Source: a virus (lineage: Duplodnaviria; Heunggongvirae; Uroviricota; Caudoviricetes). From it: 64,000 nt of DNA. Each line of letters opens with the position of its first letter. The stretch's first letter is position 1. The translations under genes were made by a program, and so were the position numbers. The stretch is from positions 131,284 through 195,283 of IMG/VR virus record IMGVR_UViG_3300042484_003148, one strand, 5' to 3'. Positions 2,952 to 63,094 of this stretch are shown here, in pieces. A model generated the notes under the pieces. It did not search any database, was not told the DNA's origin, and saw only the letters and a program-made list of their open reading frames with translations.

Positions 2952-3365
2952 ATGGAAATAAAACCAGGACTATCTTTAGTTTCAACTAAAGAATATTTTG
3001 AATTACTTAAATTCAAAGAAACTATCGAAAACAAAGGTACTGTTATTGTAAGTGAAGGTAATCGTTTTAACGGTTATCTTGATACTAAATTCAGCTTCTT
3101 AACTGAAAATGAAACTCTTGATAATTTATCTAAAAAGATAGAAACTTTAACAAAAGAAAATGTTTTATTAAAGGATGAAAACAATGTATTAAAAACTGAA
3201 AATAAAATTTTGAAATCTGATATTTTGTCTTTAAAATCGGTTAATTCTACATTAGAAAAAGGTAATGAATTATTATCTAATCAAATTCTAGAATTGACAC
3301 CTAAAGTATTAATACACGAACCTAATTGGTTTCAAAAACTATTTAAAATAAATATTTTTAGATGA
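2952..3365 (+). CDS. coiled-coil protein
   Basis: 137 aa with leucine/lysine heptad-like repeats (LTKENVLLKDENNVLKTENKILKSDILSLKS). Confidence 0.5.
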   Translation: MEIKPGLSLVSTKEYFELLKFKETIENKGTVIVSEGNRFNGYLDTKFSFLTENETLDNLSKKIETLTKENVLLKDENNVLKTENKILKSDILSLKSVNSTLEKGNELLSNQILELTPKVLIHEPNWFQKLFKINIFR

Positions 3366-3571
3366 CACAACAACAGTTAGAAATCATTGATAGATTATAT
3401 TCGTTTTACGCTATCAACAAGGAAGAATATAACATTTTAGTAGGAAATACTAACCAAGATACTTGCGTTAAATGTAGATGCTCAAAATGCACCAAAAACG
3501 AAAGATATGAAATACCGTATTCTCTTTATTCCAAAGATGGTACTATCAACTATAGTAAACATGGTTGTTAA
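3362..3571 (+). CDS. small Cys-rich protein
   Basis: 69 aa; ATGA overlap with the upstream gene; contains CVKCRCSKC...HGC. Confidence 0.45.
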   Translation: MTQQQLEIIDRLYSFYAINKEEYNILVGNTNQDTCVKCRCSKCTKNERYEIPYSLYSKDGTINYSKHGC

Positions 3572-3583
3572 ACATTATATTAT

Positions 3584-3835
3584 TTATTTTAAATAAAAAA
3601 CTCTTCTTAAATTAATAGGAAGAGTTTTTTGTTTTAATGAGGTTATAAATTGCTCAAGTAAAATCTCAATATTAGTTTCATATTTATCACTAATCTTACC
3701 ACATGTATTACATTTTATTTTAACTAAACTTTGACTATTTTTATAATTTTCATGTACTAACGAATAATCAAACTTACCGATACCATGTATATATTCAGAT
3801 TCTTCAATAAATTGTTCAACAGGTATTGGTTTCAA
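3584..3835 (-). CDS. zinc-ribbon protein (HG-x-GK-x-DYS ... C-x2-CG motif), paralog of 5365..5550
   Basis: 83 aa with IHGIGKFDYSLVHENYKNSQSLVKIKCNTCG. The same motif occurs in the 5365..5550 ORF. The module resembles zinc ribbons seen in phage homing-endonuclease-like proteins, but that family assignment is uncertain. Confidence 0.45.
   Translation of the reverse strand: MKPIPVEQFIEESEYIHGIGKFDYSLVHENYKNSQSLVKIKCNTCGKISDKYETNIEILLEQFITSLKQKTLPINLRRVFYLK
3594..3632. terminator. bidirectional rho-independent terminator hairpin
   Basis: Stem AAAAAACTCTTC...GAAGAGTTTTTT between convergent genes. Confidence 0.6.
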
Positions 3836-3966
3836 AACATTACAGTTTAAAATTTCATAGTATTTTATACTATTACTCTTCTTTTGTGGACTTTGACCTC
3901 ACACTGGGTTAACTGCCAACCCTCTATCGGTTTCATGTTCCGTTTGGAACAATCCGCCCTTGCGTT
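3836..3966 (-). ncRNA. candidate omega/right-end guide RNA scaffold of the TnpB element
   Basis: A GC-rich, hairpin-rich stretch (GUUCCAAACGGAAC, GGGUUGGCAGUUAACCC on the minus strand) lies immediately 3' of the tnpB stop. This is where TnpB reRNAs are encoded. Its composition is sharply different from the flanking AT-rich DNA. Confidence 0.45.
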
Positions 3967-5268
3967 TTATATTATTATCGGTACTAATTTACAGCGACTG
4001 CTGTCTAAGAACCTACCGATACTTAACATATACTTTCTTAGTATATTATAACTACCATTCACATCTGAGTTAACTTTGATGTTGTTTTTACTAACGTACA
4101 AACCTCTTAGCTTACGACTTCCACTGAAACTGTAATTCTTAGCTTGGTTTTTATTATAAGTTGGTATCAAGTCATCATCAACAAAGCTCGCTTGTGATGT
4201 GTAACTTTCCTCTTGTTCCACAACAACGTTACCTATCAACTCACTTTTGTACTTTAACTGTTGAGTTAATTTAGTATAAGGTATCGAAACGAAGTTTTGG
4301 TTAACTTTCTTTGACATATTTACTTCGTCTTTCCAACCTTTGTTACAACCTACAACTATTGTACCAATATTATACTGTAAACATAGTTGCAATATTTTGT
4401 TTGTGTACTCATGAAACTCATGTTCAATTTTACAGTTACGTTTGTGAGTTAAAGTGTTAATCTTATTTGAGTTCTGTAAGATTTGAGGGTTTCCTTCTTT
4501 GTCTTTCAAACTAGAATGATTTGGTAGTTGCGACTGCAACTCTGCTCTGACTTTATTATAAAACTGATTTATTGATTTAACATGACCACCTTTAATTATA
4601 CGAGGCTGAAAGCCTTCTACATTTGATGTTATGGTCATTAAATTGTTAACTCCGTAATCAATACTTATAATATTATCTTTATTTAAGTTCATGTTCTTTT
4701 CTTCTACATCATAAACAACTTCAATTTTATATTTTTTATTTGACATTGGTACTAATCGTACCATTTTCAAAACACCGTTGTGTTTGTTAATGACAGGTAC
4801 TTCAATGTTAGTTCCACTAAGTTTAATAAAACCTTGTTTTAATTTAGTTTTAGATATTGCACCAAGTTCATACGTTACTACGTAACGACCTTTGGTTTTG
4901 TGCAAGTAGTTAGGTAACTTTGGTCTGCCTGTTAAACAGTCTTTATTACTTTTGTACTTTTTACAAAGAGCAAAGAAAGATTTAAAGTTTTTATCAACCA
5001 ACATAAGAGTTTGATTACTAACTTTACGTGGTAATTCACAATAATCAACATCTTTACTGTCAACAAATTGTCTATTAATAGTATTATAATTAAAATAATT
5101 TGCATGGTCAACCATGCCTTGTTCTTTTAATTTGGAAGTATTAATAAATTCTTGTCTTACAGTATAGAGAGCTTTATTATACAGATTTTTACTTTTAAAA
5201 CACAGAGAATCAATCTCTTCATAGAAGCGATGTGATTTATTAATTATGTGTTTTTCGGTATTGTACAT
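3967..5268 (-). CDS. tnpB: TnpB-like RNA-guided nuclease (IS605/IS607 OrfB family), zinc-finger-less variant
   Basis: 433 aa. RuvC-I ISIDYGVNN, TSQ motif, and RuvC-III NSDVNGSYNILRKY (equivalent to D-x-NAA-x-NI). All four zinc-finger cysteines after TSQ are replaced (SQASFVDDD...FSGSRKLRG). The canonical IxxEDL reads IVVGCNKGWKDE. About 90% identical to the partial ORF at 63102..64000. Confidence 0.8.
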   Translation of the reverse strand: MYNTEKHIINKSHRFYEEIDSLCFKSKNLYNKALYTVRQEFINTSKLKEQGMVDHANYFNYNTINRQFVDSKDVDYCELPRKVSNQTLMLVDKNFKSFFALCKKYKSNKDCLTGRPKLPNYLHKTKGRYVVTYELGAISKTKLKQGFIKLSGTNIEVPVINKHNGVLKMVRLVPMSNKKYKIEVVYDVEEKNMNLNKDNIISIDYGVNNLMTITSNVEGFQPRIIKGGHVKSINQFYNKVRAELQSQLPNHSSLKDKEGNPQILQNSNKINTLTHKRNCKIEHEFHEYTNKILQLCLQYNIGTIVVGCNKGWKDEVNMSKKVNQNFVSIPYTKLTQQLKYKSELIGNVVVEQEESYTSQASFVDDDLIPTYNKNQAKNYSFSGSRKLRGLYVSKNNIKVNSDVNGSYNILRKYMLSIGRFLDSSRCKLVPIII

Positions 5269-5364
5269 TAACAGTTATTATTTATTATAAATAGTTTGTT
5301 TTATAAAATAAATATGTTAAATTTACATAAAACTAACATAAAGTTCTATGTTAGATGGTTGCTT

Positions 5365-5550
5365 TTAAACACAACCTCTTCTTTCATTTAGATGTCTATA
5401 CGGCGTATTAAAAAATGTGGTTCCGCATTTATTACATTTAATTTCCACTTTTGTATCCACATTTTTGTAAACTACGTTACTATAATCATAACGTCCATCT
5501 CCATGTATACTCTTACCTTTTTCTATAAAATTTTTTAATTTGTCTTCCAT
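5365..5550 (-). CDS. zinc-ribbon protein paralog (HG-x-G-x-YDYS ... CNKCG)
   Basis: 61 aa with IHGDGRYDYSNVVYKNVDTKVEIKCNKCG; paralog of 3584..3835 on the other side of tnpB. Confidence 0.45.
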   Translation of the reverse strand: MEDKLKNFIEKGKSIHGDGRYDYSNVVYKNVDTKVEIKCNKCGTTFFNTPYRHLNERRGCV

Positions 5551-5611
5551 TTTATTTTAAATTAAAAAACCTGATATTAACTAAAATACCAGGTCACACT
5601 TGTTTAATGTT

Positions 5612-5758
5612 TTATTTTACTGAATCTTTAGCTAAAGAATCCACTTTAACTACTACCGAGTCAACCTTAGTTGAATCTACTGAATCAGTTTTTTTAGTTT
5701 CACCACAAGATAATAAAGCGAAACTTACACAGATAATTGGAACTAATAATTTTTTCAT
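5612..5758 (-). CDS. small putative lipoprotein (48 aa)
   Basis: MKKLLVPIICVSFALLSCGE: signal peptide plus lipobox, followed by Ser/Asp/Val repeats. Under 60 aa, so absent from the ORF track. Confidence 0.3.
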   Translation of the reverse strand: MKKLLVPIICVSFALLSCGETKKTDSVDSTKVDSVVVKVDSLAKDSVK

Positions 5759-5856
5759 TTAATGAAATTTTTGGTTTAAAATTAAAGATTAGACAAAAAT
5801 ACAAAAAGCTTGGAATAAATCCAAGCTTTTCATACAATTTATTTTCAACTTATTGA

Positions 5857-7560
5857 TTAAGCTCTTAAATCAGAACCTACTGCGTAAGTTGGAATTGCAT
5901 CTACATAAATTTTACCATAGAAACGGTTGTTAATTACTTTAGTTGCAAAACGTGACATTAACATATACACTGAAGTACCATCATTGAAGTTAGTCATTTT
6001 TGGTAACATCATGATTGGAGTGTATGGTGCATACACATAACCTGTTGAGAATATGTCTGACCCCTTGTGTCCAATCAATAATTGAGAACTGGGGCTATAG
6101 TTGTCGACATATAAATCATAACGGTTTTGTAACGAACCAATTTTCTCAATACCCATAGAGAATTTAGTTTCACCAGCAGAAGCATCAGATACGTGGAAAT
6201 ACTCTAAAGAGTTAAACAACGCAGCGATTTCTGGAGAACAAACAATCCAGTTAGCTCCACCACCGTTTAAAGTAGATTTAGAGATAGCAGCTGAGATTTG
6301 ATTAATTTTGATAATTAACTCTTGGTTGTAATCTTGACGAGTAATACCACTTCTTTTTGAGAAACCATTGTAATCAAAACGGTCAATATAAGCAGCACAT
6401 GCACGTAATTCTCTTAAGATTGTACGGTCAATTTCAGTAGAAACTGATTGAGACATAAGAGAAACTAAAGACTCTTCAACATCAAAGTTGTGATAAGCTT
6501 TCGCATCAGCAGCAACCTCTGGAGTGAATGTAGCTCTTAATTTTCTTGGTTCTCCAACATCAATTGTAGTATAAGCTAAATCGAATGAAACCTCAGCAAT
6601 TTCTGAATCTTGCTCTAAATCAGAATATAAAGAATAAGAAGCTGTAAATACTGGTGTACCAGTTGTAGAACCTGATAAAGCGATGTATGAACCATCAGTT
6701 GCACCTGGATAAGTTAAATCTAAAATTAATTTTAAGTTACCGTTAGCATCAACGATAGATTTAGACCAAGACTGTAAACCTAATTTGAATGGAATTTCAG
6801 AACCAGCAGCAACATCATAGTTACCATTAGAAGCAGCGTTACCAACAAAAGCAACGTTTGAAGTAATTTTCAATGAAGCTAAGAATTCTTCAGTATCCAT
6901 TGGGTCTCCAACAGGACCTTGCATTTTTCCACCGTTTGAAGTGAAACCAGTTACGTTAACAGTGAAGAATTTAGTTACACCATTAGTGAAAGTACCACCT
7001 GAAACAACTGGAGCTTTTACAAAGATTTTTCCAGTAGTTCTATCGAACAATGCATCACCATACTCAGTAGCAGTTTGAGCATAATAAGCATCATACAATG
7101 AATAAGTCTCAAATTGAGTTCCGCCTGTTTTACCTGTACGTCTTCCGTCAGCATCTAAAGAATAGTTAGCAGCAGCATTTGAATAAGCACCATCCATTGA
7201 AGTATGTGCATCATTTACTCTTTTAGAAATTTTTGGGTTATAGTAATAGATACGTCCGTTAGGTCTATCTAAAGCTTGAACCGAAACAATTTCGTTAGCA
7301 AGTAATTTTGAGAACACACGTCTAATTACAGGGAATACAACTGTTTCAAAAGAACCAGAAGAATCTGTAGTTGTAGACTCATTTACCATCCAAGAAGCTT
7401 GGTTTTCTAATAATTGAGCCATGTTACCTTTTTGGAAACCGTTAAAACCTTCTAAAAGACCAACAGCATCCCATTTTTGAGCAATTAATTCACGTTGCTC
7501 ACGCATTAAATTTGTACCGATGTTTCCTAATTCACCACCAGCTAATAAACTTCTACTCAT
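5857..7560 (-). CDS. major capsid protein (T4 gp23-like)
   Basis: 567 aa. It has the highest GC and the most biased codon usage in the window. Its N-terminus (MSRSLLAGGELGNIGTNLMREQRELIAQKWDAVGLL) resembles a gp23-type propeptide region. It sits immediately downstream of the scaffold and protease genes in T4 head-gene order. Confidence 0.6.
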   Translation of the reverse strand: MSRSLLAGGELGNIGTNLMREQRELIAQKWDAVGLLEGFNGFQKGNMAQLLENQASWMVNESTTTDSSGSFETVVFPVIRRVFSKLLANEIVSVQALDRPNGRIYYYNPKISKRVNDAHTSMDGAYSNAAANYSLDADGRRTGKTGGTQFETYSLYDAYYAQTATEYGDALFDRTTGKIFVKAPVVSGGTFTNGVTKFFTVNVTGFTSNGGKMQGPVGDPMDTEEFLASLKITSNVAFVGNAASNGNYDVAAGSEIPFKLGLQSWSKSIVDANGNLKLILDLTYPGATDGSYIALSGSTTGTPVFTASYSLYSDLEQDSEIAEVSFDLAYTTIDVGEPRKLRATFTPEVAADAKAYHNFDVEESLVSLMSQSVSTEIDRTILRELRACAAYIDRFDYNGFSKRSGITRQDYNQELIIKINQISAAISKSTLNGGGANWIVCSPEIAALFNSLEYFHVSDASAGETKFSMGIEKIGSLQNRYDLYVDNYSPSSQLLIGHKGSDIFSTGYVYAPYTPIMMLPKMTNFNDGTSVYMLMSRFATKVINNRFYGKIYVDAIPTYAVGSDLRA

Positions 7561-61042: not shown

Positions 61043-61192
61043 ATGAAGAAAATACAATTCACCGAAGAAGAACTTTTACTATTATTAAACGATGTAGTAA
61101 AAGAACAACAAAATAAAGTAGAAATTTGGACCAACAATCTTTCGTTAAAAGAAGTTGTTGAAAAAGTTGGTTTTAAAATAGTTAAACAATGA
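61043..61192 (+). CDS. micro-ORF A (49 aa)
   Basis: MKKIQFTEEELLLLLNDVVKEQQNK...; ATGA overlap with the next ORF. Confidence 0.3.
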   Translation: MKKIQFTEEELLLLLNDVVKEQQNKVEIWTNNLSLKEVVEKVGFKIVKQ

Positions 61193-61314
61193 AACTAGAA
61201 ATAGCAAATTATAGTGATAGAAGATTTATTACAAGTAAATCGTTTGAAGTAATAAATAAGGAAATCCCTGTTAAAGAATATTGGTTTAACAACTTAAGAA
61301 TATATGAAAGATGA
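61189..61314 (+). CDS. micro-ORF B (41 aa), paralog of C
   Basis: MKLEIANYSDRRF...EYWFNNLRIYER; ATGA overlaps. Confidence 0.35.
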   Translation: MKLEIANYSDRRFITSKSFEVINKEIPVKEYWFNNLRIYER

Positions 61315-61436
61315 AATTAAATATCGATAACTTATATACAATTTCTTTTGAAGAAAGTAATGCGTATTTCTTTCTTATACAATTAACCCCAGCAAAGAAA
61401 CATTTACTAAACAATCTAAGGATTTATAAAAGATGA
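61311..61436 (+). CDS. micro-ORF C (41 aa), paralog of B
   Basis: MKLNIDNLYTISFEE...KHLLNNLRIYKR; ATGA overlaps. Confidence 0.35.
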   Translation: MKLNIDNLYTISFEESNAYFFLIQLTPAKKHLLNNLRIYKR

Positions 61437-61585
61437 AACTAATAGTTGCTTCAAATCCATATATCTATTTTAATTCAACTGATAGTTTCAGAGAATTATT
61501 TAATTTTATTACTAACGGAGATAAAATTAAGTTAGATAATTGGATGAATAAAAATAAACCTGATTTTATAGTAATGAAAAGATAA
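61433..61585 (+). CDS. micro-ORF D (50 aa)
   Basis: MKLIVASNPYIYFNSTDSFRELF... Confidence 0.3.
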   Translation: MKLIVASNPYIYFNSTDSFRELFNFITNGDKIKLDNWMNKNKPDFIVMKR

Positions 61586-62521: not shown

Positions 62522-63094
62522 ATGTACTACAAACTATCTGATTACGCAAAAAAATTTAACATTACCTACCGTGCAGCGTGGAATCGCTTCAAAGCTGGTA
62601 AAATTAAAGATGCTTTTGTTGATGATACAAACCATGTTTGTATCCCTGTTCATAAAATGGACTCAATGTCTAAAAACATGGTAATTTATTCCAGAGTTTC
62701 TTCTAATGAAATGAAAGAAAACTTAGAACGTCAATCTGAAAGATTGACCAACTACGCTATCTCTAACGGTTATACTATCATTAAAGTTGTTAAAGAAGTA
62801 GGCTCTGGTCTGAACGACCACAGACCTAAACTTATGAAAGTTTTAACAGACAACAACTTTGATTTTATTTTAGTTGAAAATAAAGATAGATTAACCCGTT
62901 TCGGGTTTAATTATCTTGAAACTCTTTTAAAAACTCAAAACAAACAAATTATCGTTGTTAACAATACAAATGATGATAAAACAGATATCATTAATGATTT
63001 AGTTTCTATTATCTACTCATTCTCTGCCCGTATCTACGGGTTAAGAAGAGCTAAAAACAAACAAAAAGAAATACTTAATATTATAAATAATTAA
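62522..63094 (+). CDS. tnpA: IS607-family serine recombinase transposase TnpA
   Basis: 190 aa. N-terminal MerR-like HTH (MYYKLSDYAKKFNITYRAAWNRFKAGKI), then the serine-recombinase catalytic region VIYSRVSS...KVVKEVGSGLNDHRPKL...FDFILVENKDRLTRFGF. Confidence 0.75.
   Translation: MYYKLSDYAKKFNITYRAAWNRFKAGKIKDAFVDDTNHVCIPVHKMDSMSKNMVIYSRVSSNEMKENLERQSERLTNYAISNGYTIIKVVKEVGSGLNDHRPKLMKVLTDNNFDFILVENKDRLTRFGFNYLETLLKTQNKQIIVVNNTNDDKTDIINDLVSIIYSFSARIYGLRRAKNKQKEILNIINN

Follow-up and report, generated by a model that had tools for sequence, protein, structure and literature searches.

A tnpA-less IS607-family element encoding a zinc-finger-less TnpB probably interrupts a zinc-finger gene in a T4-like phage genome

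Introduction

In a 64,000-nucleotide stretch of a tailed-phage genome (IMG/VR record IMGVR_UViG_3300042484_003148, positions 131,284 to 195,283; this whole stretch is called the window), a gene for a TnpB protein lies between two small open reading frames (ORFs) that carry related zinc-ribbon motifs. This TnpB has neither the canonical RuvC-II glutamate nor the zinc finger, and the locus therefore raises the question of what kind of element is present and how it came to lie between two paralogs. The original prediction, made from the sequence alone, proposed a relocated glutamate and either insertion into a tandem gene pair or co-mobilisation with the flanking ORFs. The analysis presented here favours, with good confidence, a non-autonomous derivative of the IS607 family that consists of a left end (LE), tnpB, the predicted guide RNA of TnpB (ωRNA) and a right end (RE). 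This element has lost tnpA, encodes a TnpB with a rearranged RuvC-II motif and was inserted in a multi-module zinc-finger gene. The coordinates of its parts are collected in Table 1.

Results

A full-length TnpB with an alternative glutamate

The tnpB product (copy 1; a second copy is described below) exceeds the cut-offs of Pfam OrfB_IS605 (6.3e-15, 55.9 bits against a curated cut-off of 30.5), Pfam Cas12f1-like_TNB (9.7e-8, 32.5 bits against a curated 26.3) and NCBIfam guided_TnpB (6.9e-41, 140.8 bits against 100), which bears out its initial identification as a TnpB with RuvC-I, TSQ and RuvC-III motifs. The RuvC-I aspartate is D204, within SIDYGVNN; the TSQ motif is T357-S358-Q359, in EESYTSQ (residues 353-359); and the RuvC-III aspartate is D402, within NSDVNGSYNI, in a C-terminus that is full length with RuvC-III intact. 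The AlphaFold2 model has a mean pLDDT of 86.5, and Foldseek matched the protein to AsCas12f (E=2e-17), ISDra2 TnpB (E=3.5e-14, TMt 0.71), ISFba1 TnpB (E=3.6e-13) and Fanzor2 (E=1.3e-12). Copy 1 is a full-length TnpB with a predicted TnpB/Cas12f fold. Relative to its homologs, the tnpA-less copies included, its dN/dS is 0.16-0.19, and tnpB is thus under purifying selection.

Two parts of the canonical nuclease are missing, as the original prediction had recognised. Residues 357-402 contain no Cys and hence no CxxC zinc finger, in place of which an Arg-rich hairpin (R385, R388, G389) would stand. In a profile alignment to Cas12f structures, G307 of 'tiviGkn' (within IVVGCNKGWKDE) faces the Glu of 'TIQMEDL', and the canonical RuvC-II Glu is therefore absent. 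In the same region, 'qeesYTSk' of the family profile lies opposite 'IDPQYTSQ' of the Cas12f chains. In the AlphaFold2 model, G307 ends the strand formed by residues 301-308, and E353/E354 end the next strand, 348-353.

To examine these features across the family, copy 1 was aligned with its 120 best matches (43-93% identity, n=121), drawn from more than 7,220 homologs in the database; IMG/VR viral contigs encode at least 560 TnpB relatives. Each of D204, G307, K313, E354, S358 and D402 is conserved in 100% of these sequences, N309 in 99% and E353 in 93%, and a CxxC motif occurs in none of the 121. The E353/E354 pair ("QEESYTSQ") is located at +46/+47 from G307. In rearranged TnpBs, for comparison, the Glu is replaced by Gly or Pro and an alternative Glu lies 'approximately 45 residues away' downstream (PMC10530073). 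Based on this agreement, the likeness to rearranged TnpB/Fanzor lineages that had been suggested at the outset holds, and the relocated RuvC-II Glu is most likely E354, together with E353, which would complete a D204-E354-D402 triad. The idea of a relocated glutamate thus survives, and the residue first hinted at does not: E315 of 'GWKDE' was rejected, as it is only 50% conserved and belongs to residues 315-326, the sole stretch with pLDDT <50 (disordered).

The same combination of Gly, EE and no CxxC is found in a Staphylococcus phage OrfB (43% identity) and in the Helicobacter pylori IS607-like OrfB (35% identity). Published work describes clade RIIr-5, in which Gly replaces the Glu and a RuvX-like beta-5 Glu is present, and reports that the C4 zinc finger is kept in the major RIIr clades and lost from 'some large branches' (PMC10691335). 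In Fanzor2, Glu467 is shifted by 50 residues (PMC11832414). As judged from the alignment, Gly at RuvC-II and the lack of a zinc finger are the usual, previously reported condition of a large TnpB lineage; because they are common to all 121 sequences, they do not set copy 1 apart. The rearranged-RuvC-II enzymes TvTnpB and ApmFanzor cut DNA (PMC10530073), and copy 1 is, by analogy, most likely an active RNA-guided nuclease.

Element ends, predicted ωRNA and candidate target motif

Comparison of copies places the element at 3842..5367 on the minus strand, approximately 1,526 bp, in the order LE, tnpB, ωRNA, RE. The LE of copy 1 matches that of the tnpA-less loci L005 and L006 and the one that precedes tnpA in copy 2 (TAAAAGCAAG...). 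To set the left boundary, an intact homologous gene in a related phage (L007) was used: nucleotide identity of 77.6% stops exactly at 5368, and TAAAAGCAAC... follows. GTGT(T) precedes the left junction in each of six independent cases (copy 1, copy 2, L005, L006, L088 and L089), and the sequence upstream of it is unrelated among them. Since the uninterrupted L007 gene has this motif as well, it derives from the target.

At the right end, eight loci, which represent seven distinct sequences, are conserved up to ...ACTGT; divergence begins directly after, which puts the boundary at 3842. The consensus is ...GAAATTTyrwACTGT; the pair with 70% identity shares ...CACAACTGT, and copy 1 reads ...GAAATTTTAAACTGT, also described as ...AACTGT. 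This boundary is independently confirmed by strains with an identical copy-2 TnpB, which diverge from exactly the first nucleotide past the right end. GT is the terminal dinucleotide on either side in all copies: the flank ends in GTGT, the right end in CTGT. An experimentally defined Clostridium IS607 case is similar, in that the TAM (target-adjacent motif)/target TGGG and the internal TCGG share a core dinucleotide (PMC10690162). Given this parallel, (K)GTGT(T) is proposed as a candidate joint TnpA target and TnpB TAM.

The predicted ωRNA scaffold is conserved in eight loci, and its non-coding part is the 125 nt after the tnpB stop (3842..3966), with a GC content of 39% versus 27% for the window. 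Its hairpin shows compensatory changes at five of six pairs, the core TAGAGGGTTnGCAGTTAACCCAGTGTGA..AAAGTCCAC is nearly invariant, and a single-sequence fold gives z = -2.15. The flank directly 3' of the conserved right end, AATGTTTTGAAACCAATACC, would serve as the guide, by analogy with TnpB biology; the right ORF starts within it, with 14 nt in common, and it has no other target in the window at ≤3 mismatches. A scan of 3300..5900 against Rfam at E≤1 returned a chance miRNA match only, with no group I intron and no RAGATH-18, and the IStron and reRNA variants were rejected on this basis. Separately, the frame of the right ORF is open for ~65 nt upstream of its TTG (3836..3900, minus strand), through the 3' part of the ωRNA (…GQSPQKKSNSIKYYEILNCNVL-KPIP…), which is probably a coincidence.

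Table 1 Features of the TnpB locus and of the sister copy (positions in the window)
Feature	Position	Strand	Basis or remark
Left end (LE), ~99 nt, TAAAAGCAAC..., without tnpA	5269..5367	-	Shared with L005, L006 and copy 2
GTGTT, candidate TAM / TnpA target-site motif	5368..5372	-	Directly 5' of LE
tnpB copy 1, 433 aa	3967..5268	-	Pfam, NCBIfam, motifs, fold, dN/dS
Predicted ωRNA scaffold	3842..4031	-	Conserved in eight loci; overlaps tnpB 3' end
Predicted guide, ~20 nt of right flank, AATGTTTTGAAACCAATACC	3822..3841	-	Directly 3' of conserved right end
Left fragment, module 1 of DUF723/treble-clef zinc-finger gene	5368..5550 (annotated ORF 5365..5550)	-	77.6% nucleotide identity to L007 gene
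Right fragment, degenerate DUF723-type module	3584..3835	-	BLASTP, module HMM, identity to P0122
IS607-family serine-recombinase TnpA, copy 2	62522..63094	+	NCBIfam, Pfam
tnpB copy 2 (= P0001, 434 aa), runs past window end	63102..>64000	+	93% identical to copy 1

A sister copy with its transposase

The original prediction had noted the lack of a transposase. For copy 1 this is correct: there are only ~99 nt between the left boundary and tnpB, and no serine-recombinase TnpA is adjacent. For the window as a whole it is not, as an IS607 TnpA (NCBIfam transpos_IS607, 7.4e-50, 169 bits against a cut-off of 110; Pfam Resolvase, 4.4e-18) accompanies a second TnpB 57 kb from copy 1. Neither this second copy, nor its TnpA, nor the conserved structured RNA past the tnpB stop had been noticed in the original prediction. 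Over the 299 aa inside the window, the copy-2 TnpB is 93.6% identical to copy 1; the left end of copy 2 begins TTAAAAGCAAG and is preceded by GGTGT, and the whole copy, with its 3' end and ωRNA, is found in contig L001 (5421..7429). Since copy 1 is without tnpA while its sister has TnpA, copy 1 is classed as a non-autonomous IS607 derivative.

Close relatives (TnpB 81-83% identity) occupy different loci in other T4-like phage contigs. One of these, L004 (TnpB 81% identical), retains only an 84-aa remnant of the TnpA C-terminus (4747..5001; …DDKTDIINDLVSIIYTFSARIYGLRRAKNKQQEILNIIHS*) and is an intermediate stage of tnpA loss. Together with L005 and L006, which have the short left end of copy 1, this locus indicates that tnpA loss is recurrent. 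L005 and L007 are on one Logan contig, SRR29492082_6111; this contig with the intact DUF723 gene thus also has a tnpA-less TnpB element (P0002, 83% identical), at a different site near a NAMPT/PRPP-synthetase gene cluster.

Contigs with an identical copy-2 TnpB share the upstream genes and diverge fully past the right end (L001 7429/7430 versus L002 1497/1498), where one contig has a 200-aa ORF and the other has ORFs of 65, 125, 76 and 131 aa. Because of this divergence, a strain-level rearrangement or insertion adjoins copy 2, and the predicted guide differs between strains.

The flanking ORFs as modules of an interrupted locus

The two flanking ORFs are paralogous (BLASTP E=2e-12, 51% identity over 41 aa), as originally claimed. 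The module of DUF723/DUF4379 treble-clef zinc-finger repeat proteins has the form HG-x-(x)-YDYS ... CxxC ... GCxxC. A module HMM matches the left ORF at 1.5e-27 and the right ORF at 6.3e-19; the right ORF is 42-48% identical to modules 1 and 2 of P0122. Of the four zinc-ligand Cys residues, the left ORF has three and the right ORF two. The latter has the first CxxC knuckle only, its C-terminus is off-module, and its 3' end overlaps a hairpin and T-run. Precomputed PF05265 (DUF723) matches exist for both ORFs, weak in the right one, and current Pfam gives sub-threshold zinc-ribbon matches only; a relative, P0123, passes DUF4379 with 39.5 bits (cut-off 24.5).

A search with the in-silico fused ORF returned three proteins, among them P0122, an intact 206-aa protein of three tandem modules in the syntenic relative L007. 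There, the prohead protease, scaffold, gp23 and a small ORF are followed by the intact DUF723 gene, with no TnpB. By this comparison, the two flanking ORFs are probably adjacent repeats within a single DUF723-type zinc-finger locus, the element having inserted where module 1 ends. The annotated stop of the left ORF, TAA (5367..5365), is inside the element under either choice of left boundary discussed below.

Weighing the alternatives

The reading of one interrupted gene depends on a single nucleotide, since the position of the left boundary is uncertain by 1 nt (T5368 may be flank or element) and the choice determines whether the ORFs were fused into one or overlapped as two. If the boundary lies after GTGTT, deletion of the element joins the ORFs in frame as a 146-aa ORF, with the donor joint GGTTGTGTT|AATG. 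Alternatively, the locus may have consisted of two separate, translationally coupled one-module ORFs, with the element landing at their junction. For IS607 serine recombinases, the core dinucleotide is identical at the two junctions (PMC10690162), and the right end terminates in GT at eight of eight loci; the flank should therefore end ...GTGT, with T5368 belonging to the element. On that reading, GGTTGTGT|AATGTTTTGAAACC would be the donor joint, and the left ORF, terminating in ...GCVMF-TGA, would share part of its stop codon with the TTG start of the right ORF (TTGA). However, the three modules form a single uninterrupted gene in the syntenic relative, where the codon in question is GTT, neither ORF has the full set of four zinc ligands, and both would derive from one repeat-containing locus either way. 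Insertion between related ORFs, as originally proposed, therefore stands; the tandem pair is weakened by the intact single gene of L007 and is kept as a tentative alternative with a substantial, though minority, share of the probability. Cargo or accessory genes that move with the TnpB element, the co-mobilisation of the original prediction, would be close to it and on the same strand, as both ORFs are. Yet both are outside the ends set by comparison of element copies, and in the relative an ortholog of the left ORF occupies the same place without any TnpB. In addition, at 88 other loci, of which 8 come from close relatives and 80 are IMG/VR viral, the module HMM found no DUF723-type domain in the 2-6 kb around TnpB, and transport as cargo has next to no probability.

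A different challenge concerns the protein. Loss of the canonical RuvC-II Glu and of every zinc-finger Cys could be read as inactivation, the more so in a copy without tnpA, and domesticated phage-encoded TnpBs are known, namely the RNA-guided repressors TldR (PMC10705468). Such a nuclease-dead or otherwise exapted protein would be hard to reconcile with the invariance of D204, E354 and D402 in 121 sequences, with a residue pattern equal to that of DNA-cleaving rearranged TnpBs and Fanzors (PMC10530073) or with the untruncated C-terminus and its intact RuvC-III. Moreover, the transposon ends and the ωRNA with a flank-derived predicted guide are kept at several different insertion sites, the sister copy has an intact IS607 TnpA, and no conserved partner gene was seen. 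Unlike TldR, copy 1 thus combines an invariant D/E/D set and a full-length C-terminus with varying insertion sites and intact element ends, and a domesticated or dead nuclease is considered highly improbable.

Besides the 1-nt ambiguity, several points weigh against an active element inserted in a single gene. The D204/E354/D402 triad rests on secondary-structure position and literature analogy; among solved structures, none was found from this exact zinc-finger-less TnpB lineage, and the literature yielded no activity assay for it. ωRNA expression, guide length and TAM are all predictions made here. The dS of ~0.29 between copies 1 and 2 is old, and the two are not recent duplicates. The right flank has no DNA homology to the L007 gene beyond short chance matches. 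Finally, no empty site was found in the same phage: every contig with the right ORF either contains the element or ends within the ωRNA (L091). With these points considered, the insertion of a tnpA-less IS607 derivative in a multi-module zinc-finger gene is still regarded as quite probable.

Discussion

Relation to known systems

Copy 1 appears to fit the rearranged-RuvC-II type of TnpB ('TnpB2'/RIIr; PMC10691335, PMC10530073), with RIIr-5, RIIr-4 or Ser-2/5 as candidate branches. That type shares Gly for Glu, an alternative Glu ~45 residues on in the next strand, RuvC-III of the form N-[A/S]-D-x-N, association with a serine-recombinase (IS607) TnpA, many standalone copies and a presence in viruses. 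In contrast to the major RIIr clades, which retain the C4 zinc finger, the family of the window TnpB is without it in all 121 sequences. The H. pylori IS607-like OrfB, at 35% identity, shares the G / EE / no-CxxC pattern. Fanzor2 (ApmFz2; PMC11832414; PDB 9b0l) also has its Glu shifted ~50 residues C-terminally in an IS607-like context and a viral genome, but it keeps the zinc-finger domain, has an N-terminal extension and a nuclear localisation signal, and occurs in giant viruses of eukaryotes.

Other nucleases are related by fold or by element organisation. ISFba1-type TnpB (PMC11061315; PDB 8iaz) is a compact RNA-guided nuclease that is associated with IS607 and has a similar fold; it differs in its canonical triad (D194/E290/D371), its RAGATH-18 RNA, for which there is no Rfam match here, and its TAM, AGGAG. 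ISDra2 TnpB and Cas12f (PDB 8h1j, 8exa, 8j12) have the same WED-REC-RuvC-TNB architecture and a 3' ωRNA with a flank-derived guide, whereas they have the canonical RuvC-II Glu and C4 zinc finger, and ISDra2 is partnered by a Y1 (IS605-type) transposase. Copy 1 is not a canonical, ISDra2-like 'TnpB1', as Gly occupies the RuvC-II Glu position in 121 of 121 sequences and the C4 zinc finger is absent. The order LE-tnpA(Ser)-tnpB-ωRNA-RE of the Clostridium botulinum IStron (PMC10690162) and other IS607 elements is that of copy 2. In IS607 elements, the flank motif and right-end terminus share their last nucleotides (here GTGT/CTGT; TGGG/TCGG in C. botulinum), and tnpA-less derivatives such as copy 1 exist. 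Relative to the C. botulinum IStron, the window element has no group I intron by Rfam, a different target motif and a T4-like phage host.

Proposed mechanism and outlook

Based on published TnpB biology, the transcript would be processed to an ωRNA, with the flank past the right end (3841..~3822) as its 3' guide. The ribonucleoprotein would find an unoccupied site, GTGT(T) followed by a guide-matching sequence, which could arise by excision or be supplied by a co-infecting phage without the insertion. Cutting of this site and recombinational repair off the occupied copy would restore the element (homing, or retention). Transposition to a new site would depend on TnpA supplied in trans by the sister copy.

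T4 seg/mob endonucleases cause marker exclusion. In a comparable manner, the element could act as an RNA-guided homing endonuclease in competition between phages, its ωRNA guide targeting uninterrupted DUF723 alleles beside the major capsid gene during co-infection, so that cuts would convert rival genomes and drag the gp23 region along, with a zinc-independent TNB domain. This extension is rather unlikely. If true, it would represent homing by a zinc-independent TNB domain of a kind with no prior structural or biochemical description.

The element itself is real and well defined, yet it is unexceptional within an already known TnpB lineage. Its interest is mainly one of calibration: the seemingly odd catalytic features of this TnpB are the rule across a very large, largely phage-borne lineage of IS607 type. 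The locus is nonetheless a worked example, as its two ends are placed with a precision of 1 nt, a relative has the homologous gene intact, a TAM and a guide can be put forward as candidates, and the same genome contains an autonomous sister copy. It could be used for testing a compact, zinc-finger-less, rearranged-site TnpB and for studying TnpB homing between T4-like phages.

Genomic setting and neighbouring features

The window (26.8% GC) is contained in the JGI metagenome contig Ga0453662_0000001 (308,574 bp). A T4-type head module surrounds the TnpB locus: the ORF at 5857..7560 (minus strand) is Gp23 by Pfam (2.6e-57), with prohead protease and scaffold genes beyond it. A phage collection of 50,697 records holds no DNA near-identical to the window, and the window gp23 is at best ≤37% identical to that of known phages; by these comparisons, the genome is therefore that of an uncultivated, AT-rich T4-like jumbo phage. 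The T4 late-promoter motif TATAAATA is present upstream of tnpB. Nothing is concluded from it, as the motif is not enriched in the window (29 occurrences versus 25.6 expected).

Between gp23 and the zinc-finger gene, a 48-aa ORF (5612..5758, minus strand) has a lipoprotein-like signal (…FALLSCGE), with a strong terminator-like hairpin on either side (5835..5799 and 5595..5568); in L007, a 52-aa ORF is in the equivalent position. Upstream of copy 2 (61189..61585, plus strand) are very small ORFs of 40-50 aa with overlapping stops and starts, two of which end alike in NNLRIY(E/K)R. More ORFs of 40-50 aa are located downstream of copy 2 (L001 9711..12422), and the runs on both sides look like a tandem array of mini-paralogs.

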